Shown one piece after another: positions 6,738 to 30,071 of a DNA stretch of 39,874 nucleotides. Below the pieces are notes generated by a model. That model was not told the origin of the DNA, made no database searches, and was given only the letters and a program-made list of their open reading frames with translations. The translations under genes and the position numbers were made by a program. Source of the stretch: Deltaproteobacteria bacterium (GTDB lineage Bacteria > Desulfobacterota > Dissulfuribacteria > Dissulfuribacterales > UBA3076); NCBI GenBank assembly GCA_021159445.1, contig JAGGRV010000431.1, positions 1-39,874 on the forward strand. Direction: 5' to 3'. Every line of letters begins with the position of its first letter. Position 1 is the first letter of the stretch.

Positions 6738-6760
6738 TATCCAGTGACTTCTTAATTTGA

Positions 6761-6776
6761 GCAAGCGATGTGCCAG
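6761..6776 (-). promoter_or_regulatory. Sigma54 (-24/-12) promoter reading into the CBS gene
   Basis: The minus strand reads CTGGCACATCGCTTGCTC, matching TGGCAC-N5-TTGC. It is 16/18 identical to the element at 10468-10485. Confidence 0.6.
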
Positions 6777-10468: not shown

Positions 10469-10484
10469 TGGCACATCTATTGCT
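10469..10484 (+). promoter_or_regulatory. Sigma54 (-24/-12) promoter of the mrp-like operon
   Basis: CTGGCACATCTATTGCTA matches TGGCAC-N5-TTGC exactly. It lies about 70 nt upstream of the first mrp gene and downstream of a sigma54 activator gene. Confidence 0.65.
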
Positions 10485-10555: not shown

Positions 10556-11131
10556 TTGGACAAGCAAGAGGAAAAAGGGCTGGGGCACGAGCACAATACC
10601 AGCAAAGTAGAAAACTCGGATCAAGGTCCAGGGCGCCGAAAGAGTTTTGGCCTTTATGTGGTTACATTCTTTATCATGTTCGGCGTCTGGGTCGTCCTTT
10701 CAGGCAAATTTGATCCCTTTCATCTCAGCCTCGGGGTCATCTCCTGCGCCATCGTGGCTTACCTTTCGGCCGACCTGTTGCGTCCCACCGTAAGAGGTCT
10801 TTTAATTCTGTTGGTCCGATGGGTCCCGTATCTCCTGTGGCTGATGAAGGAGATCTTCAAAGCAAACCTTCATGTTACATATCTTGTCTTCCATCCAAGG
10901 ATGATGGATCTGATCGATCCCAAAATTGTTAAATTCCGAAGCAAGCTGGAAGGCGACCTGGCCCTAGTCACCTTTGCCGATTCGATTACCCTCACTCCCG
11001 GCACTATTACAGTCAATGTATCACCCGATGGTGATTTTAAGGTTCATGCCATTGACAAGGCGTCTGGTGAGCCCCTGCCAGGCGAGATGGAGGCCAGGAT
11101 TGCCAAGGCATTTGGGGAGTCTGATGGATAG
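10556..11131 (+). CDS. mrpE: Mrp/Mnh antiporter subunit E (MbhA-like)
   Basis: 191-aa ORF with a TTG start 7 nt after GGGGAGGG. It has TM helices and an MnhE-like C-terminal half (ITLTPGTI). Confidence 0.82.
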   Translation: MDKQEEKGLGHEHNTSKVENSDQGPGRRKSFGLYVVTFFIMFGVWVVLSGKFDPFHLSLGVISCAIVAYLSADLLRPTVRGLLILLVRWVPYLLWLMKEIFKANLHVTYLVFHPRMMDLIDPKIVKFRSKLEGDLALVTFADSITLTPGTITVNVSPDGDFKVHAIDKASGEPLPGEMEARIAKAFGESDG

Positions 11132-20908: not shown

Positions 20909-22606
20909 TTATTTAGCATCTGAACATGGAGGAAATTTCAACAGAAATGTTGTACCAGTCCCTACCTCAGTCTTTACCTCTATAGTTCCACCATAATCCT
21001 TGACAATTCCATAGCTGATGGACAGACCTAATCCCGTTCCCACACCCACTTTTTTGGTGGTAAAGAATGGTTCAAATATTTTATCCAATACATTTTCGGG
21101 AATACCGTTTCCCGTATCGGATACAGAAATTGCAACCCGTCCTCTGTCTGAAAATGACTTAATTGTTACCTTACCACCTGGTTCGCCTTTTTCCTCAATG
21201 GCTTGCCGGGCATTGACAACCAGGTTTAAAAGGACCTGCTCCAACTTATTACTATCTGCCATTATATGGGGCGGGTTATCATCCAGGTCCAAATCTATCT
21301 CTATATCACGCACCTTGAACTGTTGTCCCAATATCCCAATAATATTTCTGATAGGCACATTCACATCAAGCTCTGTTGTTTTGACACCGATCCTTGAAAA
21401 ATCCCGCATATGATTGATGATTGCCGCTGCCCTGTCTACCTGACCAACAATTTGTTCAGTCACAGTTCTTAATTCTTCATCCTTAATCTTTTTGCCCTTG
21501 TCGATCATCTTTGACAGAAACGTAGCGCCCATTCTAATAACACTTAACGGTTGATTTAACTCGTGGGCTACGCCTGATGCCATCTCACCCAAGGTGGACA
21601 TCTTGCTGGCCTGAACTAACTGGGTCCTTTTTTCTAATTTCTTTATCTCTTTTTCAGAAATATCCAGTTTGGAGACCATATGTTTAAAGGAATCCGCCAA
21701 CTGGACCATCTCGTCACCCACATGGGTTTTATATACTTTGCATTCACGACACTCGTCCAGTTTTTCTGGAAAGCTCCCTGATGGCTGGCCGAAACAGAGT
21801 GTTCCGTCCACGTACCAGCACATTGTCGAAGTATTTCCATATGCAGGGCAGTCGGTTTTTGTGCATTTTTCTATCTCCCAGCATTTGACCTCTCTACCAA
21901 AATCAACCTCTGTTTTCCCACGGCTGATTTCATCGGCTAATCGCGCAAGTTGGGCAAGGGGCCGGGTAACGAATCTGGATAAGAAAATGAATAAGAAGAC
22001 ACCCACAATTACAAGGGAAGCCAGGCCCCAGACAATCTCTCTATTCCTGACTTCTGCTACTCGCTTCTCTACGGGGCCCCAGCTGATTCCTACGGTTAGG
22101 ATCCCCAATATTTCATTTTCACTTCCATGGCATTTATAACAGGTTTCCTCATTCGGGATAGGCATGGCATGGAGAAGTATCTTTTCTCCTTCCTGCACCT
22201 CTAGGTCCTTCGCCAGGGAACCGGTGCGTAATGCCTCTTCAGTGGCATGTGAATCGTCAAGCATTTTTATATTGGCTGGTAATCCACTGTATTTGATGCT
22301 GCCTGTAAGATCGCAAAGATTTACTACTCTCACGTCTGTTAATTTATACAAGCTTTCCAAGATGGCCTGTACGGCCTCCATGTCTCCGTCGAGCATAGGG
22401 TACTCAATACTTCTTAATACCGTGTCACTGATCTCATATGCCCGCTCCTCCTGCTTTCCAAAGTGATACTTAATTCGCATTACCATATCGTAGTAAGTAA
22501 GGAGGCCTATTACTACGATTAAGATCACGCCCATACCCATTATTACCTTGTCTCTTACGCTGGATATGCGTAATTTTGACCATAATCTGTCCAAAAGAGG
22601 TGTCAT
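20909..22606 (-). CDS. Sensor histidine kinase with a periplasmic CXXCH (haem c) domain and a 7-Cys module inserted in its HAMP domain
   Basis: 565-aa ORF. Order of elements: TM1, a roughly 150-aa periplasmic domain with CYKCH, TM2, HAMP helix 1 (RPLAQLARLADEISRG), a 48-aa Cys-rich insert, HAMP helix 2 (DEMVQLADSFKHMVSKL), H-box GVAHELNQPL, and ATPase boxes NARQA, DTGNGI and GTGLGLSIS. Confidence 0.88.
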   Translation of the reverse strand: MTPLLDRLWSKLRISSVRDKVIMGMGVILIVVIGLLTYYDMVMRIKYHFGKQEERAYEISDTVLRSIEYPMLDGDMEAVQAILESLYKLTDVRVVNLCDLTGSIKYSGLPANIKMLDDSHATEEALRTGSLAKDLEVQEGEKILLHAMPIPNEETCYKCHGSENEILGILTVGISWGPVEKRVAEVRNREIVWGLASLVIVGVFLFIFLSRFVTRPLAQLARLADEISRGKTEVDFGREVKCWEIEKCTKTDCPAYGNTSTMCWYVDGTLCFGQPSGSFPEKLDECRECKVYKTHVGDEMVQLADSFKHMVSKLDISEKEIKKLEKRTQLVQASKMSTLGEMASGVAHELNQPLSVIRMGATFLSKMIDKGKKIKDEELRTVTEQIVGQVDRAAAIINHMRDFSRIGVKTTELDVNVPIRNIIGILGQQFKVRDIEIDLDLDDNPPHIMADSNKLEQVLLNLVVNARQAIEEKGEPGGKVTIKSFSDRGRVAISVSDTGNGIPENVLDKIFEPFFTTKKVGVGTGLGLSISYGIVKDYGGTIEVKTEVGTGTTFLLKFPPCSDAK

Positions 22607-22665
22607 TTTACCTGTCCCTCAATTCCCCATACGCTCATACTGATGATGGCATGTAGTGCAGCGGC

Positions 22666-23106
22666 TCAATATCCCGGATGCTTGTGCCCGCTGTGACAGC
22701 TTGTACATATATTCTTTGGAATGCTCAATGTCTCTTGATGTTCCAGCCTGGTCGGAGCCTTGAGATGTAAGCTGGCCGGACCATGGCAACTTTCACACTG
22801 TTTATTGACCATCCTTGGGGTTTTTTCCACACTGACAAATCCTCCCTTTTTCCCAAAGCCGGTCGTATGGCAAGGCAGACAGTCTGGGTCATGATCTCTT
22901 TTTCTCATCTGTATGACCCGAAAATTCCTTGAGTATTTCCAGGAGAGATAGCTTTCCACATGCCCTGCGTGGCATTCTTTGCACTTGTCCATTCCAACAT
23001 AGGTGGCCTTCTCTTTTTCAGCCTGAAGATACGGTGTGTTAAAGGCAAACAAATATAAAGCAACAAGCCCGGTGGTCATGGTGATAAATAGTTTTTTCAT
23101 TTTCAT
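22666..23106 (-). CDS. Periplasmic tetrahaem c-type cytochrome (cytochrome c554-like multihaem family)
   Basis: Four CXXCH motifs are present (CKECH, CLPCH, CESCH, CTSCH) with a signal-peptide-like N-terminus MKMKKLFITMTTGLVALYLFA. ATG 23106, 7 nt after AAGGAG, is preferred to the ORF-track GTG 23133. Confidence 0.88.
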   Translation of the reverse strand: MKMKKLFITMTTGLVALYLFAFNTPYLQAEKEKATYVGMDKCKECHAGHVESYLSWKYSRNFRVIQMRKRDHDPDCLPCHTTGFGKKGGFVSVEKTPRMVNKQCESCHGPASLHLKAPTRLEHQETLSIPKNICTSCHSGHKHPGY

Positions 23107-23443
23107 CTTCAAGCTCCTTTGGCCAGAATCCACGTCGAGGATCTGAAAACAAATAGCATTTTATCCTATCGTACGAAGCATGGAGAATAAAACGGTGCTG
23201 AACTGAATAGCGCTCCATGCTATTTTGCGAACTCTATGGATATTATATAGAAGCCTGGTCCTTGGATCAACCACACCTAAGAACTTTAATCATGTATTAT
23301 ATGGAAATCTTAAGGTGAAGTAAAAACCTGCATTATTGCCATTTTGTCTTTCAAAGCGCAGCATTCTGTGCTATGTATTTGTTCAGGTAAAGAGATAGGC
23401 TTGCCTAAGGGCTTTCTCAGTAATTATAGGAGTGAGGAAGGAA

Positions 23444-23878
23444 ATGGCTAAAAAGATACTTATCGTGGACGATGAGCCTGATATTATTACCTTTATCAGC
23501 GCAGTCCTTGAAGACAACGGTTATTCAAGCATAAGTGCCAACAATGGGATTGAGGGACTTGAACTCTTGCGCAAAGAGAAGCCTGATCTGGTTTTGCTCG
23601 ATCTTATGATGCCCAAAAAAAGTGGCATTGCCATGTTTCAAGAGTTAAGATCGGATCCGGACATGAGCAATACTCCCGTGATCGTGCAGACCGGGGTCTC
23701 TGAGGTGACAGGGGTCAATTTCAGGAACTTCATGTTCAAACAACCGCTTCGGGATGAAAAGAAATTTGTCGAGAGCACGGGATTAACAAAATATACTATT
23801 CCAGACGGCTATATTGAAAAACCAATTGATCCTGTTGAGTTGATTGAAGTAATTAAGAAAGCCTTAAAAGAAACATAG
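23444..23878 (+). CDS. CheY-like single-domain response regulator
   Basis: The 144-aa product begins MAKKILIVDDEPD and contains LVLLDLMMPKKSG and IEKP. ATG 23444 follows GGAAGGAA and is preferred to GTG 23432. Confidence 0.88.
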   Translation: MAKKILIVDDEPDIITFISAVLEDNGYSSISANNGIEGLELLRKEKPDLVLLDLMMPKKSGIAMFQELRSDPDMSNTPVIVQTGVSEVTGVNFRNFMFKQPLRDEKKFVESTGLTKYTIPDGYIEKPIDPVELIEVIKKALKET

Positions 23879-23985
23879 CCGTTCACGGCTTGAAACTTGA
23901 AATTGGAAAGTAGAAATTGGGGAGAGATGAAACGAGTCTACACAAAAGCATGAAGGCCAAATTTCTAACTTCAACGTTCCGTGCG
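23878..23985. repeat. R1 element, copy b (108 nt)
   Basis: It starts on the last base of the RR stop codon. Its reverse complement matches 20742-20902 apart from a central deletion. Confidence 0.85.
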
Positions 23986-24036
23986 TGAATTCCCCTGCTC
24001 TATACAAATCGACAAAACCGGCTTCTTGAATAATAG

Positions 24037-24065
24037 ATTGAGACGACCTCAGAGGTCGTCTCAAT
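24037..24065. terminator. Bidirectional intrinsic terminator between the convergent RR and cytochrome b genes
   Basis: A perfect 13-bp stem attgagacgacct / aggtcgtctcaat has a 3-nt loop. T-rich sequence follows on both strands. Confidence 0.65.
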
Positions 24066-24082
24066 CCTTATTGATTTGTTGG

Positions 24083-24715
24083 TTAGTGATCTTCTACCTC
24101 TTCCTCCCAACCGGTTATCATCGTTATGATATGAGCCCAGAAGGTATGGCCCAGGGTAGCCAGATACATGTGGACAAAGAGGAAGGCAGCGAAACAGCAG
24201 GCTACCAGAAAATGTAACCCAATCACTATTTTTACCCCACCCAAAAACACCATCCATTTTTGCGTAATCAGCAGAAGCAGCAGGCCGGACAACAGGACGA
24301 TCGGTACAAGCATCGTCATGATCATCAGATATGCCCCTTTCTGCATGGGGTTGAATTTGGCATCAGGCGTGGAGTGGTGAGGGTTCGGTCCACCTTTGAA
24401 GTAGTTGAAGCCATAGAACACCATCTGTTTTATGATTCCCGTCTTCAGGTCATACATGTTGGGGACATAGAGCTTTATCAGGCTCTTATCAATAAACACG
24501 TAATATACAAACCATAACAACCAATCGATGCACACGAAAATTCCGGTAAAATCATGAACCAGTACCGCTGCTCTATAGCTGCCGAAGAAATTAATATACT
24601 CAGGAAACCTGATCTGAGCTCCTGTAATGCACAGAGTTGTTATTCCAATGGCGTGGATCCAATGCCATATCCTCACTGTAAGAGGATTGAGGTAGATCAT
24701 TTTTGGTTTTTCCAT
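24083..24715 (-). CDS. Dihaem b-type cytochrome, HydC/FdnI (Ni/Fe-hydrogenase cytochrome b) family
   Basis: 210 aa from ATG 24715, with four TM helices. Four conserved His lie in VRIWHWIHA, VLVHDF, IGLHFL and FVHMYL. The ATG is 2 nt after the stop of the upstream cytochrome c gene. Confidence 0.86.
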   Translation of the reverse strand: MEKPKMIYLNPLTVRIWHWIHAIGITTLCITGAQIRFPEYINFFGSYRAAVLVHDFTGIFVCIDWLLWFVYYVFIDKSLIKLYVPNMYDLKTGIIKQMVFYGFNYFKGGPNPHHSTPDAKFNPMQKGAYLMIMTMLVPIVLLSGLLLLLITQKWMVFLGGVKIVIGLHFLVACCFAAFLFVHMYLATLGHTFWAHIITMITGWEEEVEDH

Positions 24716-24717
24716 GA

Positions 24718-25884
24718 TCAATGTTTCCTCCTGTTTTTTTGAGTCAGAATTCTGAAAGTGCCATGGAGGCAGGCCGCGCCTAAACCACCGGCTATGATCA
24801 GCAGGCCCAAAATGCTGAGAATATCGTTTCTGGTGGAGCCCACCATGTAGAAGTCAGCAGTAGCAAAAAGAGGGTCAAGCACTGCCCCCTCTTCAACAGC
24901 GACCCTGCTGTATGTGCCATCTTGATTAGGGAAGGCTACGTAACATGTCTGCATGGCTTTGGGCCCGGCAGCGTGACAGAAAGAACAATCCCGGCGGTCT
25001 TCAAATATTCCATAACTGTGACTTGCTGTCTTTGTTGACAGCATCCCCCAGAGCCCTACACTCTTATATTTTGAGTTCATATTAAACTCTTTGAGTTCCG
25101 CCGTTGTAATGGAGCCGTCACCATTGGTATCTATGAGAGATTGAACTCCCTTGTCTCCGACTAATTGCGTGAGATCCTGGTAAGTTGCGAGGTCAATCTC
25201 ACCTTCTTTATCTGGTTTGATATCCTCTCTTTTCTCAATATACATGGTGATGACGATGCCTTTTGAATCGGTATGGCAGCTTATGCACGTAGTTGCCTGC
25301 ATGTGGAGCTTGTTCCGGAGGAGCCATTCAGAGTGGCCGGCACCTTCGTGACAATTAATACACTGTTTATTTTTTTCAAAACCTGAGGTCTCCAGGTAGC
25401 TTATTGCTGTATGGGGGCTGTGACAATCCGAGCAAACCGCATTTCCTGCATGGGGACTATTTAAATACTCTTCAACGGCCTCTTCATGGCACATACCACA
25501 ACTTTCACCAGGAGACTTGAGACCTTTGGCCGCATGGGGGTCGTGACAATCTGTGCATTCCGCATTTCCCGCATGAAGGCCCTTTGATAACTCATCAATA
25601 GTATCTTCATGGCACATGTCACAGCTTTCTTTTTCGGGCATGACACCGTCGTCCGGGTGATCATCGGTTACGTAATGGCAGGACACGCAACCATCTTCTG
25701 CGTGTTTTGTGCCGGCGAACTGGGTACCATCGATATATAAATATTCACCAACAATGGATGAATCGCCATGGCATTCCAGACAGTCATCGGTTTCCATGGC
25801 ACTCGACGAGCTGATGCCAATGCCAGCCACCAACATCATGAAACCGAAAATACAGATTATGAGAAACTTTGCTTTGAGCACCAT
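24718..25884 (-). CDS. Membrane-anchored nonahaem c-type cytochrome
   Basis: Nine CXXCH motifs were counted: CLECH, CVSCH, CDMCH, CTDCH, CGMCH, CSDCH, CINCH, CISCH and CSFCH. An N-terminal signal and a C-terminal TM (ILSILGLLIIAGGLGAACL) are present. ATG 25884 is preferred to the ORF-track GTG 25902. Confidence 0.88.
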   Translation of the reverse strand: MVLKAKFLIICIFGFMMLVAGIGISSSSAMETDDCLECHGDSSIVGEYLYIDGTQFAGTKHAEDGCVSCHYVTDDHPDDGVMPEKESCDMCHEDTIDELSKGLHAGNAECTDCHDPHAAKGLKSPGESCGMCHEEAVEEYLNSPHAGNAVCSDCHSPHTAISYLETSGFEKNKQCINCHEGAGHSEWLLRNKLHMQATTCISCHTDSKGIVITMYIEKREDIKPDKEGEIDLATYQDLTQLVGDKGVQSLIDTNGDGSITTAELKEFNMNSKYKSVGLWGMLSTKTASHSYGIFEDRRDCSFCHAAGPKAMQTCYVAFPNQDGTYSRVAVEEGAVLDPLFATADFYMVGSTRNDILSILGLLIIAGGLGAACLHGTFRILTQKNRRKH

Positions 25885-25951
25885 CCTTCCTCTCTTCCTC
25901 ACCTATAGAACTTAGAAGTTCATGTGCGAGCATACTCCAATGTCCCTTGCT

Positions 25952-26110
25952 AAGGAACGTACAATAAATAACTTGAACAAATTAACGTCTTTTTTGCCGT
26001 CTTCTTCGTTGCTCGTCGATCACATAACCCGTTATGCTCGCTCCTCGCGCCTTGAATACAACAAAAAATCCTGTTAATTTTTGTTCAACTTATTTATCTC
26101 CCGTTCCTAA
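25952..26110. repeat. R2 palindromic element, copy a (159 nt, about 45-nt imperfect terminal inverted arms)
   Basis: The arm aggaacgtacaataaataacttgaacaaattaac faces gttaatttttgttcaacttatttatctcccgttcct. Positions 26009-26110 equal the reverse complement of 39774-39874 with 1 mismatch. Confidence 0.85.
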
Positions 26111-26698: not shown

Positions 26699-27175
26699 AT
26701 GAGATACTTCCTTACCATTGTCACAGCAATAATAACGATCATTATCTTTTTTAATCCGGAAGAGGTTAAAGGTGGAAATAACACTGAAACACAAAAATAT
26801 GTCGGTTCAGAAGCCTGCGAGGCCTGTCACCAAAAAGAATATAGTAGTTTCATCAAATATGCAAAGAAGAGCATTTCGTTCGAGAGCATTCAAAGGGTAA
26901 AAAAGGGCCTTGCCGAGGAAGAAATCCATAAGTGCTATTTTTGCCATACAACAGGATATGGTAAACCGGGCGGCTTTGTCAGTCCTGAGGAGACCCCTCA
27001 CTTGAAGAACGCAGGCTGTGAAGTATGCCATGGCCCGGGTGAACTACATGTCAGGACGCAGCGCGTTCAGGATATCAAGATGAATCTCACAATGAAAGAT
27101 TGTGAGGAGTGTCATATTTCAGAGAGGGTCAAGGCCTTCAGGTACAAGCCCTTGATTCACGGAGGCGCGCATTAG
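26699..27175 (+). CDS. Periplasmic tetrahaem c-type cytochrome, paralogue of 22666-23106
   Basis: Four CXXCH motifs are present (CEACH, CYFCH, CEVCH, CEECH). It shares CHTTGYGKPGGF and CEVCHGPGELH blocks with the other tetrahaem protein. Confidence 0.88.
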   Translation: MRYFLTIVTAIITIIIFFNPEEVKGGNNTETQKYVGSEACEACHQKEYSSFIKYAKKSISFESIQRVKKGLAEEEIHKCYFCHTTGYGKPGGFVSPEETPHLKNAGCEVCHGPGELHVRTQRVQDIKMNLTMKDCEECHISERVKAFRYKPLIHGGAH

Positions 27176-27182
27176 CGGCTCC

Positions 27183-27342
27183 GTAAGCGTTCACAGGGCA
27201 CCGCATCTGCTTTGTTGTCGGGCACTTGAAGTACAGGGAGTACGTCTGCGTACCCTCCGCCTCGCATCTGCAGCACCCTGTAAACGCTTACAGTTCTGTG
27301 GGTTGCGATAAAGCGGGGCGTTGTAATCCCGTGAACGGTTAC
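27183..27342. repeat. Three copies of a GT(A/G)A-N4-T(T/C)AC near-palindrome in the cytochrome-kinase intergenic region
   Basis: The copies are GTAAGCGTTCAC (27183-27194), GTAAACGCTTAC (27280-27291) and GTGAACGGTTAC (27331-27342). Extended 16-nt segments pair 15/16 (27183-27198 with 27276-27291). Confidence 0.5.
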
Positions 27343-27377
27343 GCGGCTCCAATGGGTGCCGCATTGTTGAGGACAGG

Positions 27378-30071
27378 ATGTTTGGTTTTATAAGAAAGAG
27401 TTTTGCAAACAAGATAATGGCTACTGTAATAATCAGTATAGCCCTGGTTATGGCGGCTGAAATTGTCTTGAGAATATACTTCGGGACCAAAGACAGGATG
27501 GAGTTGGTAAGAACTCTTAATTTAGACGTGTCCGGATCGATCCATTCCGGCATAACATATCCAATGCATGTTGGAGATAATAAGGCTATCGAGGGAGTCT
27601 TGTCTGATGTCCGTAAAAGGATGGGAAACATCGAGGCATGGATATGCGATTTTGATCAAGTGATAACCTGGTCCACACACGAGGAAAGGGTAAAGACCAG
27701 GGTTGCAGATTCCATTCATGATAAGGAGGCATTGAAGGCCTTAAGCAAGACGTTGAGCTCAGGAGTAACACAAGAAAAAGCATTTTTAGAAGAACTTGCT
27801 GGAAGAAAGGTCCTTATTACCATCCAGCCCATTCTGAATCAAGAAGACTGCTATCACTGCCATGGCTCTTCAAGGAAAGTTCTCGGTGGCTTGATAATAG
27901 GAACTGACGTGAAGCATGCTTACATGACGGTCGTTGCTGCCAGGAACAGGACTATAGTGATGAGTTTTATTGGAATATCGATTATCATTGCCTTAATTTA
28001 TGTGATGGTGACCAGATTCATCAGGCGTCCTGTGGAGGATTTGGCTGACAAGGCAAAGAGGTTTGCAGAAGGCGATACGTCTGTTTCGGTAGACATAAAG
28101 TCAGAGGATGAAATAGGCGTATTAGGCAACGCATTTAACTATATGGTTCAAAGGGCATCTCAATTCAGCAAAAGACTTGAAAGTGAGGTCGCCAGAAAAA
28201 CCGACCTGTTAGGCGAAAGGACCAATCTTATAGCACTATTGGAAAAAGCAAATACACAACTCAGGGAGCTTGACAAACTAAAATCTACGTTCTTGGCGAA
28301 TATGTCTCATGAGCTAAGGACACCGATGAATTCTATTATCGGATATTCAGATTTGCTAATAGACGGGGTTGACGGACCAATTAACGAGGAACAGGAAAAG
28401 AGTCTGGGCAGAATTTCCAATAATGCCAGGCACCTCTTGCAATTGTTAAATGATCTTCTCGATCTCTCCAAGATAGAAGCAGGGAAAACTGAGATAGAAG
28501 CAGAACAATTCAACCTCAAAGGGCTCATTGATTCAGTAATTCCCGTGTTTGAGGGAATGATAACCCAAAAGGGTCTTTCCCTTGATTTTGATATCGATGA
28601 GAATCTGCCTTTAGTCTATGGCGATAAGAATAAAATCAAGCATGTTTTAATGAACCTGCTGTCCAATGCGATCAAGTTTACCGATGAGGGAGGCATAACC
28701 ATCCGTGCCAGGACATCCGGTCGCGGTATTCAACCTGGCGAGTCTCCCATATTTGCAGAGGTCTGTGTAGAGGATACAGGCATCGGGATAAAGGATGAGG
28801 ACCTCGGTAAGATTTTTGACAAGTTCGTGCAGGCTGACCTTTCTACCGTCCGCCAATATGACGGGACCGGCCTGGGTCTCAGTATTGCGAGAGGGTTGAT
28901 TGCATTGCACAATGGTATGATCTGGGCCACGAGCAAGTATGGCAAGGGAAGTCAATTCTATTTCACTATTCCGCTCAAACAAGAGACACTTGAATCTTCA
29001 GCTAAGCCGGTCATAGAATTACGAGTGGCTGACGACCTGGCTGAGCACTTCGGGGTGCCTGTTGAGACCTTTCTGAAAGACCCCGAATATGAAGGCAACC
29101 CGGTAAGGTGTCACGACTACATCCATTGTGGACAGCCAAGCTGTCCGGCCTATGACAGTGAAGATAAACGTTGCTGGCTCATTCTTGGGACACATTGCTC
29201 AGGACTGAAAGTCGGTGCCTATCCGGAAAAGGTTAATTTTTGCAAGAATTGTGAGGTTATACAGAAACTGGTGCTTGAGTCACAGAAGTCAAAAATCGTT
29301 GGGTCAGAGCTATCGACCGAAGAAGGCATTACGAAAAAGACGGTCTTGGCAATAGATGACAATCCGGATGCCATTGATATTATCAGGAAATCTCTGGGAG
29401 AGGACTACAAAATAGTAGGTCTTCTCAGTGGGAAAAGGGCAGTTGAAAAGGCCATAGAGACCAGACCTGTAGCCATTACTCTGGATATAATGATGCCGAA
29501 AAAGGATGGATGGCAAGTACTGCGGGAGCTGAAGAGTACGCCAGAGACCCGGGATATCCCGGTAATTGTCCTTTCAATTGTGGATAATAAAAAACTGGGA
29601 TTCAGTCTGGGTGCTGCGGAATATATGGTAAAGCCGCTAGATAAGAATTTTCTGCTCAGAAAAATAAGAGATCTGGAAAAAACGGGTAAGATACAACGGG
29701 CACTTGTAGTAGATAGTGATACAGATACAGTATCGCTGATCGAACATGCCCTGCAAGACGTTGGGTGTGAGGTAAAGACAGCTTACAATAGCCAGGATGC
29801 AGTTAAGTTGATAAAGAGTTTCATGCCCCATCTGATCATCCTCAATCTGACAATGCCCAAGGTAAATGGTTTTGATGTAATCGAGTATATAAAAACAGAA
29901 AAAAGTGCCAAGAAGATCCCTCTTATTCTTATTACTAAGAGGGAGTTGAGTGAGAAAGAGAAAGACGCTCTAAACGGTAGGTTACGTGGTATATTAAACA
30001 AGATGGTACTTAAAGAAGAAGATCTCTCACAAGAACTCAAAGATAGAATTGATGAGATAAAGAGTGCCTGA
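27378..30071 (+). CDS. Hybrid sensor histidine kinase: periplasmic CXXCH domain, HAMP, HisKA, HATPase, 7-Cys module and two receiver domains
   Basis: 897-aa ORF. CYHCH lies at aa 158-162 between two TM helices. The HAMP is intact (RRPVEDLADKAKRFAEGD..DEIGVLGNAFNYM) and the H-box is MSHELRTPMNSI. ATPase boxes are NAIKFT, DTGIGI and GTGLGLSIA. The Cys-rich block spans aa 578-625. The two REC domains contain LAIDDNPD..LDIMMPKKDG and LVVDSDTD..LNLTMPKVNG. Confidence 0.9.
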   Translation: MFGFIRKSFANKIMATVIISIALVMAAEIVLRIYFGTKDRMELVRTLNLDVSGSIHSGITYPMHVGDNKAIEGVLSDVRKRMGNIEAWICDFDQVITWSTHEERVKTRVADSIHDKEALKALSKTLSSGVTQEKAFLEELAGRKVLITIQPILNQEDCYHCHGSSRKVLGGLIIGTDVKHAYMTVVAARNRTIVMSFIGISIIIALIYVMVTRFIRRPVEDLADKAKRFAEGDTSVSVDIKSEDEIGVLGNAFNYMVQRASQFSKRLESEVARKTDLLGERTNLIALLEKANTQLRELDKLKSTFLANMSHELRTPMNSIIGYSDLLIDGVDGPINEEQEKSLGRISNNARHLLQLLNDLLDLSKIEAGKTEIEAEQFNLKGLIDSVIPVFEGMITQKGLSLDFDIDENLPLVYGDKNKIKHVLMNLLSNAIKFTDEGGITIRARTSGRGIQPGESPIFAEVCVEDTGIGIKDEDLGKIFDKFVQADLSTVRQYDGTGLGLSIARGLIALHNGMIWATSKYGKGSQFYFTIPLKQETLESSAKPVIELRVADDLAEHFGVPVETFLKDPEYEGNPVRCHDYIHCGQPSCPAYDSEDKRCWLILGTHCSGLKVGAYPEKVNFCKNCEVIQKLVLESQKSKIVGSELSTEEGITKKTVLAIDDNPDAIDIIRKSLGEDYKIVGLLSGKRAVEKAIETRPVAITLDIMMPKKDGWQVLRELKSTPETRDIPVIVLSIVDNKKLGFSLGAAEYMVKPLDKNFLLRKIRDLEKTGKIQRALVVDSDTDTVSLIEHALQDVGCEVKTAYNSQDAVKLIKSFMPHLIILNLTMPKVNGFDVIEYIKTEKSAKKIPLILITKRELSEKEKDALNGRLRGILNKMVLKEEDLSQELKDRIDEIKSA

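Follow-up and report, generated by a model that had tools for sequence, protein, structure and literature searches.

The window analyzed here, i.e., the whole stretch of 39,874 nucleotides (contig JAGGRV010000431.1 of assembly GCA_021159445.1), contained two adjacent genes on the minus strand. The first, cbcA (24718..25884), encoded a membrane-anchored, periplasmic nonahaem cytochrome c of 388 aa, which carried nine CXXCH motifs and matched PDB entry 28pb with an E-value of 1.5e-85. The second, cbcB (24083..24715), encoded a dihaem cytochrome b of 210 aa with the four-helix HydC/FdnI fold, and it scored 70.8 bits against Pfam Ni_hydr_CYTB (PF01292), for which the curated cut-off is 30.1. The cbcA gene started with an ATG at 25884, with GAGGAAGAGAGGAAGG directly before it, and ended with a TGA stop at 24720-24718. 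This stop was separated by 2 nt (TC) from the ATG of cbcB at 24715, and the ribosome-binding site of cbcB, AGGAGG (24727..24732, minus strand), was read from the sequence within the 3' end of cbcA. The TAA stop of cbcB was at 24085-24083. A mechanical list of open reading frames started both frames at upstream GTG/TTG codons, giving 394 and 212 aa; the ATG starts were preferred because they carry ribosome-binding sites and agree with the homologues.

A signal peptide region was recognized in CbcA by a hydropathy scan at aa 1-29 (25798..25884, minus strand; core aa 7-25, SSSA/ME), and the first CXXCH fell beyond it. The nine motifs were located at aa 35, 66, 88, 110, 129, 151, 175, 200, and 300. 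The periplasmic part contained exactly nine further His outside the motifs (61, 76, 104, 117, 145, 158, 184, 194, and 289), so that bis-His ligation is possible for all nine haems. In the hydropathy scan, a hydrophobic C-terminal helix spanned aa 355-373, and H374-G-T-F-R and a basic tail came after it. The anchor helix as a whole (aa 353-378; 24751..24828, minus strand) had His374 (codon 24763-24765) at its cytoplasmic end, and this residue was invariant in 79/79 sequences from the loci and in 94/94 database sequences. An H-G-x-x-R motif like that at the anchor helix was present in 22 of the 26 fused relatives examined. The haem-poor, beta-rich part of CbcA contained an EF-hand-like loop, DTNGDGSITTAE (aa 252-263; 25096..25131, minus strand), in which D252 and E263 were invariant (79/79) and N/D254, D/N256, and I259 were conserved. 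The loop gave a weak Pfam EF-hand match below the cut-off, and its region was modelled at pLDDT >90.

The AlphaFold model of CbcB comprised four long helices (residues 12-36, 47-75, 123-150, and 160-186). Four residues, H18, H54, H168, and H182, were invariant across 73 homologues and could be aligned with four His in HyaC of E. coli, which we take to be the haem ligands of that protein. HyaC was reached from CbcB only with a 22-sequence profile, and a single-sequence search of PDB with CbcB gave no match. The best structural match of the model in Foldseek was FdnI (1kqf_C, TM 0.70, probability 1.00). The features listed in the preliminary description of this DNA, i.e., nine CXXCH motifs, an N-terminal signal and a C-terminal transmembrane helix in a 388-aa protein, and a 210-aa four-helix cytochrome b with four conserved His 2 nt after the stop of the cytochrome c, were all confirmed.

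Among the NCBIfam models, CbcB was matched best by the thiosulfate reductase cytochrome b subunit (NF011582, 99.5 bits) and next by the b subunits of hydrogenase and then of formate dehydrogenase. By that name, CbcB would be the membrane anchor of a PhsC-type thiosulfate/polysulfide reductase, a hydrogenase or a formate dehydrogenase, and the cytochrome c would be unrelated to it. However, these matches were far under the cut-offs of the three models (204, 121.5, and 115.85 bits, respectively), no adjacent molybdopterin, Fe-S, hydrogenase, or formate dehydrogenase catalytic genes were found at the locus, and the partner coupled to CbcB at 2 nt was always a CbcA-type cytochrome. Anchor roles of the PhsC, HyaC, and FdnI kinds were rejected on the missing catalytic partners and the low scores, which leaves this reading extremely improbable. 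The label "thiosulfate reductase-like" is a common mis-annotation of CbcB homologues (Joshi et al., bioRxiv 10.1101/2021.04.15.440034).

Geobacter CbcBA comprises a seven-haem CbcA with a His on its C-terminal helix and a four-helix "thiosulfate-reductase-like" CbcB (Joshi et al., bioRxiv 10.1101/2021.04.15.440034). The window's CbcB shared 57% identity (E 5e-92, residues 2-205) with the product encoded at the cbcB position in G. hydrogenophilus, and CbcA shared 44% identity over its whole length (E 1e-111) with that encoded at the cbcA position. PDB 28pb matched the CbcA of G. hydrogenophilus with an E-value of 4e-159; this entry was taken to be the soluble domain of Geobacter CbcA, i.e., the structure of Antunes et al. 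(2026) that is cited in a review (PMC13591261). A Foldseek search of the CbcA model against PDB (to April 2026, evidently without 28pb) gave no match with E <0.9. This outcome was uninformative, since matching of haem-poor multihaem models is poor. For comparison of the loci, 80 species genomes were fetched, and both genes were callable in 72 of them. The conservation of the pair is far beyond chance, since cbcA was followed directly by cbcB in 72/72 of these loci and the gap was 2 nt in 46/72. The closest loci were those of MAGs labelled SeepSRB2 (90-93% identity). We concluded, with a probability of about 0.88, that the two genes form the cbcA-cbcB operon of a Seep-SRB2-clade bacterium and encode an orthologue of the Geobacter CbcBA (Cbc5-type) menaquinone:cytochrome c oxidoreductase. 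The occurrence of CbcBA in Seep-SRB2 is already known, as it was named there by Murali et al. (2023, PLoS Biol 21:e3002292; PMC10553843). Nine haems instead of the published seven represent a variant within the CbcA family and not an exclusion from it, because all seven conserved motifs are kept and a duplicated pair is added.

Relative to all heptahaem CbcA, the window's CbcA contained a 41-aa insertion that added two CXXCH and two His. Two consecutive two-haem units formed a tandem duplication here: unit A (ESCDMCH...CTDCHDPH; aa 86-126; 25507..25629) and unit B (ESCGMCH...CSDCHSPH; aa 127-167; 25384..25506), both on the minus strand, were identical at 20/41 aa and 82/123 nt. In the nearest seven-haem relatives there is one such unit, to which each of them was about 54-57% identical. 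The inserted unit was modelled at pLDDT <50. Nine haems were found in 13/13 complete CbcA of the Seep-SRB2 genus and seven in the 67 other species loci; H104 and H117 were present in 13/13 nine-haem sequences and in no others. In the CbcB tree, in which the window's CbcB fell inside the CbcB clade, the nine-haem clade had a single origin (97) and was nested among partners of seven-haem CbcA (99 and 96). These observations indicate that the nine-haem state goes back to a single event within the Seep-SRB2 lineage, in which the haem 3-4 unit was duplicated in tandem. The alternative that the two extra haems are ancestral and shared with CbcL was rejected on account of this nesting. It was also contradicted by the mutual similarity of units A and B (54%), which matches the similarity of either to the one unit in the closest relatives with seven haems, and by the sister genera in the same family, whose CbcA has seven haems.

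The preliminary description had interpreted the pair as the unfused equivalent of CbcL. Its statement that CbcL is a fusion of a HydC/FdnI-type cytochrome b with a nine-haem cytochrome c agrees with the literature examined. On such a reading, the pair would be descended from, or orthologous to, this nine-haem c/six-helix b fusion, with the haems corresponding one to one. The two systems have equal haem counts (nine), the first seven CXXCH of CbcA were collinear with a CbcL-type fusion in BLAST (29% over about 200 aa, E 2e-13), and hhalign of CbcA with CbcL gave a probability of 98.9% over 135 columns in the N-terminal haem region. In addition, the elements of CbcL follow the same order as those of CbcA plus CbcB, with a c domain, a His helix, and then helices bearing H, H, and HH. 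However, CbcB showed no pairwise similarity to the CbcL-type fusion (BLASTP E 0.63; hhalign probability 25.8%), and the C-terminal half of CbcA, with the beta-rich part, the EF-hand loop, and the last haem, had no counterpart in CbcL. The CbcL-type protein possessed six hydrophobic segments or helices, as against four in CbcB and one anchor in CbcA; two of the nine CbcA haems were a recent lineage-specific duplication on a seven-haem scaffold; and the full-length matches of the pair to CbcA and CbcB were far stronger than those to CbcL. A search of the window's own genome with CbcL recovered the N-terminal haem region of the same CbcA only (E 1.6e-6), with no b-domain match.

Descent from CbcL or orthology with it is therefore very unlikely, and the split-CbcL reading is largely refuted; CbcA/CbcB is the better family. 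The alignment to CbcL held for the first haems and failed for the cytochrome b. It indicates distant homology between CbcA and CbcL over about six haems at the start, as a shared module and not as orthologues. The equal haem count is coincidental and arose independently, since the nine of CbcA are seven plus a lineage-specific duplicated pair. Of the menaquinol:periplasmic-cytochrome conduit proposed in the preliminary description, the functional class and the HydC/FdnI-type b subunit were retained, but the CbcL family was not.

A perfect 14-bp hairpin (24036..24066), 17 nt after the cbcB stop, is a probable bidirectional terminator that would close the two-gene operon. Convergent with cbcB was a stand-alone receiver-domain response regulator (23432..23878, plus strand; Pfam Response_reg), which was part of the conserved cassette and was present at this position in every Seep-SRB2 locus whose flank was long enough. 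Beyond it, on the minus strand (20909..23133), were a c554-like tetrahaem cytochrome (22666-23133) and a haem-motif sensor kinase, HK1 (20909-22606). HK1 matched the kinase upstream of cbcA in G. hydrogenophilus over its full length (29% identity, E 2e-56). On the other side, divergent from cbcA, a paralogous c554-like tetrahaem cytochrome (26699-27175) was followed by a hybrid sensor kinase, HK2 (27378-30071), and this module (26699..30071, plus strand) was conserved in position in the Seep-SRB2 loci. Its conserved synteny with the sensor modules makes it plausible that the pair is their regulatory target, as the preliminary description had suggested. The cassette contained no DNA-binding regulator, no sigma-54 activator of the BccR type, and no cbcC-like gene. 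A sigma-54 promoter scan (TGGCAC-N5-TTGCW, <=2 mismatches) gave 20 hits compared with 22.9 expected, with none upstream on the cbcA strand, and a sigma-70 scan gave no excess over the shuffled background.

Seep-SRB2 is described as a sulfate reducer with an obligate syntrophic lifestyle, to which electrons are delivered as the partner of methane-oxidising archaea (PMC10553843). It was reported to lack Qrc and to express CbcBA highly, and reverse running of the complex was proposed: in the methane-oxidising syntrophy, CbcBA would transfer electrons from periplasmic cytochromes to menaquinone and thereby replace Qrc (Murali et al., 2023; PMC10553843). Horizontal acquisition of CbcBA from Desulfuromonadales was also proposed (PMC10553843). 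The window's own genome (96% complete) was examined in this respect. CbcB was its only PF01292 protein above the cut-off, and its only NrfD-family protein was DsrP, which means that it has no QrcD. In metatranscriptome contigs of a ~93%-identical strain, cbcA and cbcB were spanned in one piece. The contigs of the pair had a word depth of 12-37x compared with about 5-7x for those of the neighbouring kinases, although these ratios are not quantitative: word depth in contigs reflects expression poorly, DNA may be present among RNA contigs, and the strain is only a related one.

Sequence features give the anatomy of the complex, from which a mechanism can be proposed. A single C-terminal helix anchors the exported CbcA in the membrane, and its chain of nine bis-His c-haems lies on the periplasmic side. 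The four-helix bundle of CbcB accommodates two b-haems, one between H18 and H182 on the cytoplasmic side and the other between H54 and H168 on the periplasmic side. The c-haem chain, together with the two b-haems, would then connect the menaquinone pool with the periplasmic cytochromes for electron transfer. By analogy with FdnI only, the quinone site is probably near the cytoplasmic b-haem; with the site in this position, inward flow would be electrogenic and could stand in for the missing Qrc. Considering the lifestyle of the organism and the published expression data, we favour an inward physiological direction, from partner-reduced cytochromes to menaquinone and thus the reverse of that in Geobacter, as the somewhat better supported choice.

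The identity of the complex would be the same if it acted as a menaquinol oxidase like that of Geobacter, exporting electrons to extracellular acceptors or for electron disposal. Export is the only role of CbcBA that has been shown experimentally (Joshi et al., bioRxiv 10.1101/2021.04.15.440034). At -279 mV, the midpoint potential of CbcA is below those of the other inner-membrane cytochromes of Geobacter, and its electron exchange with periplasmic cytochromes is reversible (PMC13591261), so either direction is possible. The two haem-motif sensor kinases in the cassette also suggest conditional use. However, Seep-SRB2 receives electrons, is without Qrc, and highly expresses CbcBA during AOM (PMC10553843), and neither a further FdnI-type b subunit nor QrcD is available in the genome for the inward step. 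Moreover, oxidation of quinol toward haems at -0.28 V would be uphill without a low-potential sink. Export as the main function is thus rather unlikely here.

With the complex running inward, electrons from the archaea are proposed to enter the quinone pool of Seep-SRB2 at CbcBA, and anaerobic methane oxidation coupled to sulfate would then depend on this complex for one of its central steps. The correct family assignment also matters for annotation, as "thiosulfate reductase" is the label routinely given to the b subunit. The clade-wide nine-haem CbcA, the anchor-helix His beside the four canonical b-haem His, and the natural fusions provide handles for biochemistry; fused CbcA-CbcB forms are common outside Seep-SRB2. 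The nine-haem duplication, the anchor-helix His, the CbcA-CbcB fusions, and the collinearity with CbcL were not found in the literature examined. The nine-haem CbcA, the anchor-helix His, and the fusions do not change the picture of the system. A multihaem c domain, a His-bearing anchor helix, and an FdnI-type b bundle, with five conserved membrane His in all, may constitute a common and ancient architecture. As a tentative speculation, which we regard as possible though doubtful, the nine-haem CbcA could be an adaptation specific to Seep-SRB2 whose duplicated bis-His unit of two haems tunes or lengthens the periplasmic wire for inward, energy-conserving flow from the archaea to menaquinone, and CbcBA, the fusions, and CbcL could be one architecture that was fused and split repeatedly.

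One of the closest known systems is CbcBA of Geobacter sulfurreducens (GSU0593/GSU0594), which belongs to the Cbc5 cluster cbcEDCBA. In both bacteria, cbcA is followed by cbcB with the stop and start nearly abutting, and a homologous haem-motif sensor kinase is encoded nearby. Both CbcA proteins have a signal peptide, a multihaem periplasmic domain, a conserved beta-rich part with the EF-hand-like region, and a C-terminal helix with the invariant His, and CbcB is in both cases a four-helix FdnI-type dihaem b subunit. They differ in that the Seep-SRB2 CbcA has nine haems through the duplicated haem 3-4 unit, whereas that of Geobacter has seven. In Geobacter, cbcC, cbcD, and cbcE lie downstream, and the operon has a BccR-type sigma-54 activator and a -24/-12 promoter; the Seep-SRB2 locus is without the former genes, and neither of the latter was found there. 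The missing cbcCDE and sigma-54/BccR operon are context and not a property of the protein family. The Seep-SRB2 locus is instead flanked by two mirror-image modules of tetrahaem cytochrome and kinase, unlike that of Geobacter, and it belongs to a sulfate reducer, for which inward running of the complex is proposed.

CbcL of Geobacter (GSU0274) belongs to the same job class, that of inner-membrane bc-type quinol:cytochrome c oxidoreductases. It is fused in one polypeptide and its b domain has six helices with five candidate His, whereas the pair is split, cbcB having its own start and ribosome-binding site after the stop of cbcA, and CbcB has four helices. The four-helix fold of CbcB is shared with E. 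coli FdnI (1kqf_C), and the His pattern of E. coli HyaC (4gd3_A), H in TM1, H in TM2, and H-x13-H in TM4, aligns with that of CbcB. However, the partner of FdnI or HyaC is a formate dehydrogenase or a hydrogenase, while that of CbcB is a membrane-anchored multihaem cytochrome c, whose anchor helix brings an additional invariant His into CbcBA. QrcABCD of Desulfovibrio is a menaquinone reductase fed by periplasmic cytochrome c3. As one arm of a redox loop, it carries electrons of periplasmic cytochrome c to menaquinone, which is also the role proposed for CbcBA in a sulfate reducer, but its architecture of NrfD-type membrane, molybdopterin-like, and Fe-S subunits is unrelated. The text of Murali et al. 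(2023) does not mention that the Seep-SRB2 CbcA has nine haems or contains a duplication, and the His of the anchor helix and the sensor modules on either side of the pair are likewise absent from it. The gene pair of the window is the one that was described there for this clade, and the features described here are added details of that system and not a different one.

The cytochrome pair is encoded on the minus strand. The cbcA gene extends from ATG 25884 to TGA 24720–24718 (388 aa) and is preceded by a purine-rich ribosome-binding site; after a gap of 2 nt, cbcB starts at ATG 24715 with its own AGGAGG ribosome-binding site and ends with the stop at 24085–24083 (210 aa), and a perfect 14-bp hairpin was located 17 nt past this stop. 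CbcA contains nine CXXCH motifs (aa 35, 66, 88, 110, 129, 151, 175, 200, and 300), an N-terminal hydrophobic stretch (aa 7–25) and a single C-terminal hydrophobic helix (aa 355–373), after which come H374-G-T-F-R and a basic tail. Its periplasmic part has exactly nine non-motif His, a number that suffices for bis-His ligation of nine haems. CbcB matched Pfam Ni_hydr_CYTB (PF01292) with 70.8 bits (cut-off 30.1), and its AlphaFold model comprised four long helices. The ORFs, the nine motifs, the 2-nt gap and the helices bore out, as written, the preliminary description of a nonahaem cytochrome c gene next to a four-helix cytochrome b gene. CbcA was shown to be an exported, membrane-anchored nine-haem cytochrome c, and CbcB an FdnI-type dihaem b subunit. 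CbcA also carries an EF-hand-like loop, D-x-N-x-D-G-x-I-x-x-x-E (aa 252–263, nt 25096–25131), which is kept family-wide beyond the window, with D252 and E263 invariant in 79/79 sequences, and lies where the protein is modelled best (pLDDT above 90).

One solved structure, PDB 28pb (chain of 278 aa), strongly matched CbcA (E 1.5e-85). It also matched (E 4e-159) a G. hydrogenophilus protein whose gene immediately precedes one of the CbcB type, and the 28pb chain comprises the soluble domain of a CbcA from Geobacter. A 2026 review (PMC13591261) cites Antunes et al. for a new crystal structure of CbcA; because the code is printed there as 2BPB, we only infer that it is 28pb. The window CbcA aligned with this G. 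hydrogenophilus CbcA over the whole length (44% identity, E 1e-111), the sole difference being 41 residues that the Geobacter protein lacks, and the window CbcB shared 57% identity with the downstream protein (E 5e-92). CbcBA has been described as a multihaem CbcA with a His-bearing C-terminal anchor helix and a four-helix CbcB whose usual annotation, "thiosulfate reductase-like", is wrong (Joshi, Chan and Bond, 2021; 10.1101/2021.04.15.440034), and the window pair agreed with this description on each point. The top NCBIfam name for the window CbcB was thiosulfate reductase b subunit, far under its cut-off. On sequence grounds, the pair was thus shown to be an orthologue of CbcBA, encoded by tightly coupled genes.

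Four His of CbcB (H18, H54, H168, and H182) were invariant across 73 sequences and lined up with four His of E. coli HyaC, which we take to be the HyaC haem ligands, and the CbcB model matched FdnI (1kqf_C) with a TM of 0.70. This alignment and the FdnI-like model indicated that CbcB alone has the complete canonical b-haem ligand set. That differs slightly from Geobacter CbcBA as published, in which CbcB contributes three His and CbcA one (10.1101/2021.04.15.440034). H374, where the anchor helix of CbcA ends on the cytoplasmic side, was invariant in all sequences examined, and it may provide a fifth ligand option, belong to the quinone site, or contact a haem propionate.

Among 80 species CbcA loci, nine CXXCH motifs occurred only in the 12 complete loci of the Seep-SRB2 genus, the clade of the host, and 67 others had seven; a further Seep-SRB2 locus was truncated. 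Nine motifs were also present in two more divergent metagenome proteins. The additional 41 residues duplicate the haem 3–4 unit (ESC-x-MCH ... HAGNA-x-C-x-DCH-x-PH). The two copies in the window CbcA were identical at 20/41 aa and 82/123 nt, and each shared about 54–57% identity with the one unit that the closest seven-haem relatives have. The insert supplies two CXXCH and two additional His, kept in 13/13 nine-haem sequences, and the duplicated unit would bring two more haems to the periplasmic wire and may alter its reach, potential or docking. In the CbcB tree, the nine-haem clade had one origin within the seven-haem forms, which indicated that nine is the derived state. No mention of the nine-haem count was found in the text of the Seep-SRB2 paper (Murali et al., 2023; PMC10553843).

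The nearest loci belonged to metagenome-assembled genomes (90–93% protein identity), two of them labelled SeepSRB2. Seep-SRB2 was reported to lack Qrc, to have acquired CbcBA from Desulfuromonadales, to express it highly during anaerobic methane oxidation and probably to run it backwards, with periplasmic cytochromes feeding electrons to quinone (Murali et al., 2023; PMC10553843). The window CbcB was the only PF01292 protein above cut-off in its genome, and the only NrfD-family protein was DsrP, in the dsrJOP cluster, so QrcD is absent. Of 17 further genomes from this genus, 14 had CbcB and three, which were 70–83% complete, did not; elsewhere in the order the distribution of CbcB was patchy. 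The Seep-SRB2 clade was nested among Desulfuromonadales sequences in the CbcB tree. In metatranscriptome contigs of a ~93%-identical strain, cbcA and cbcB were on one contig, with a word depth above that of the flanking kinases, which is weakly consistent with the published high expression. These genome, distribution, tree and RNA-contig checks agreed with the published account.

The potential of menaquinone is about -74 mV. For Geobacter CbcA, a midpoint potential of -279 mV and reversible electron exchange with periplasmic cytochromes have been reported (PMC13591261), and Geobacter needs CbcBA below about -0.21 V (10.1101/2021.04.15.440034). In Seep-SRB2, electrons from the ANME partner would arrive at CbcA and pass through the two b-haems to reduce menaquinone, a direction that would be downhill at these potentials. 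FdnI, taken as an analogue, would place the quinone site close to the cytoplasmic b-haem, so that inward electrons together with cytoplasmic proton uptake would build membrane potential. Outward flow through the same geometry would consume it, in line with the low growth yield that was reported when Geobacter respiration depends on CbcBA (10.1101/2021.04.15.440034).

The pair lies in a cassette in the order of hybrid kinase, receiver, HK2 (hybrid sensor kinase, 27378–30071) and tetrahaem c554-like cytochrome; cbcA and cbcB; receiver; c554-like tetrahaem cytochrome, HK1 (sensor kinase, 20909–22606) and receiver-kinase. All Seep-SRB2 loci with sufficient flanking sequence kept this order. In G. 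hydrogenophilus, a kinase gene lies upstream of cbcA, and its product and HK1 aligned end to end, periplasmic sensor included (29% identity, E 2e-56); similar kinases were present at many Desulfuromonadales loci. The conserved cassette and this homology support the view that the sensors and cbcAB are functionally linked. No DNA-binding output domain was found in the cassette and no sigma-54 promoter ahead of cbcA, and therefore we only infer that cbcAB is the regulatory target of the sensor modules.

Both HK1 and HK2 have a periplasmic Mcp40H-20-type sensor domain with CXXCH (CYKCH, CYHCH), and the kinase beside the Geobacter bccR-cbcBA locus, a full-length homologue of HK1, has CYTAPCH where HK1 has CXXCH. 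Elsewhere in the window, perfect sigma-54 -24/-12 matches (TGGCAC-N5-TTGCT) were located at 6760–6775 (-) and 10469–10484 (+), the latter ~70 nt upstream of an ORF starting at 10556. Between the c554-like cytochrome gene and HK2, the spacer (27183–27342) reached an RNA-contig word depth of ~1000–2200 in three metatranscriptomes, against <10 around it, and many of the contigs over it differed in their flanks; it resembles a repeat or small RNA element that is present in multiple copies and strongly transcribed. The contigs of the ~93%-identical strain skipped 157 nt (25949 to 26107) at a palindromic element upstream of cbcA (25952–26110), and another 157 nt (23871 to 24029) at 23871–24029, where they had 46 other letters instead. 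These repeat elements thus appear to be strain-specific insertions flanking cbcAB.

An exhaustive CbcB search retrieved 654 related cluster representatives. Among the best 150, 79 exceeded 400 aa, all but one with the CbcB-like domain in the C-terminal part, and 52 were stand-alone proteins of 190–300 aa. A closer look at 26 long forms revealed seven CXXCH in 16, and an H-G-x-x-R anchor motif in 22, ~30 residues ahead of R-x-WHW (first b helix). In the isolate genome of Oryzomonas japonica Red96 (L071:5965–7686), cbcA and cbcB formed one in-frame ORF of 573 aa with no junction stop, and this fusion was nested among split forms in the tree. These long proteins and the nested Red96 fusion indicated that both fusion and fission are common within the CbcB family. 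The tree sister of the Red96 fusion was a metagenome representative of 574 aa (P0122). Many other representatives (P0131–P0211) were long proteins of up to 1094 aa with 7–13 CXXCH, ending in an anchor helix with H-G-x-x-R and then the CbcB-like domain; they formed a large, mostly fused branch in deep clades apart from the split CbcBA group.

The preliminary description had taken the pair for an unfused CbcL, the Geobacter protein that fuses a nine-haem c part with a b part. CbcL-type proteins taken from three Geobacter genomes by PF01292 search were 618 aa long, with a signal peptide, nine CXXCH and six hydrophobic segments, and kept V205, mutated in published CbcL work. Judged by the tests named in the preliminary description, the specific link failed: the window CbcB had no pairwise similarity to the CbcL-type protein (E 0.63) and only 26% probability in profile–profile comparison, and CbcA aligned only in the N-terminal haem region (29% identity over ~200 aa, E 2e-13; hhalign 98.9%, 135 columns). 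CbcL has no counterpart of the C-terminal half of CbcA (beta-rich part, EF-hand-like loop and last haem), and no CbcL was found in the window's own genome (96% complete). As nine haems arose once inside seven-haem forms, the shared number is coincidental. What is left of the link is that the multihaem module is distantly homologous and the overall layout collinear; CbcL seems to be a protein that has diverged much further but has the element order of the CbcA–CbcB fusions. The pair is real and important to its organism, yet it belongs to a system already described, and the label "split CbcL" should be replaced by "CbcBA (Cbc5-type), nine-haem Seep-SRB2 variant".
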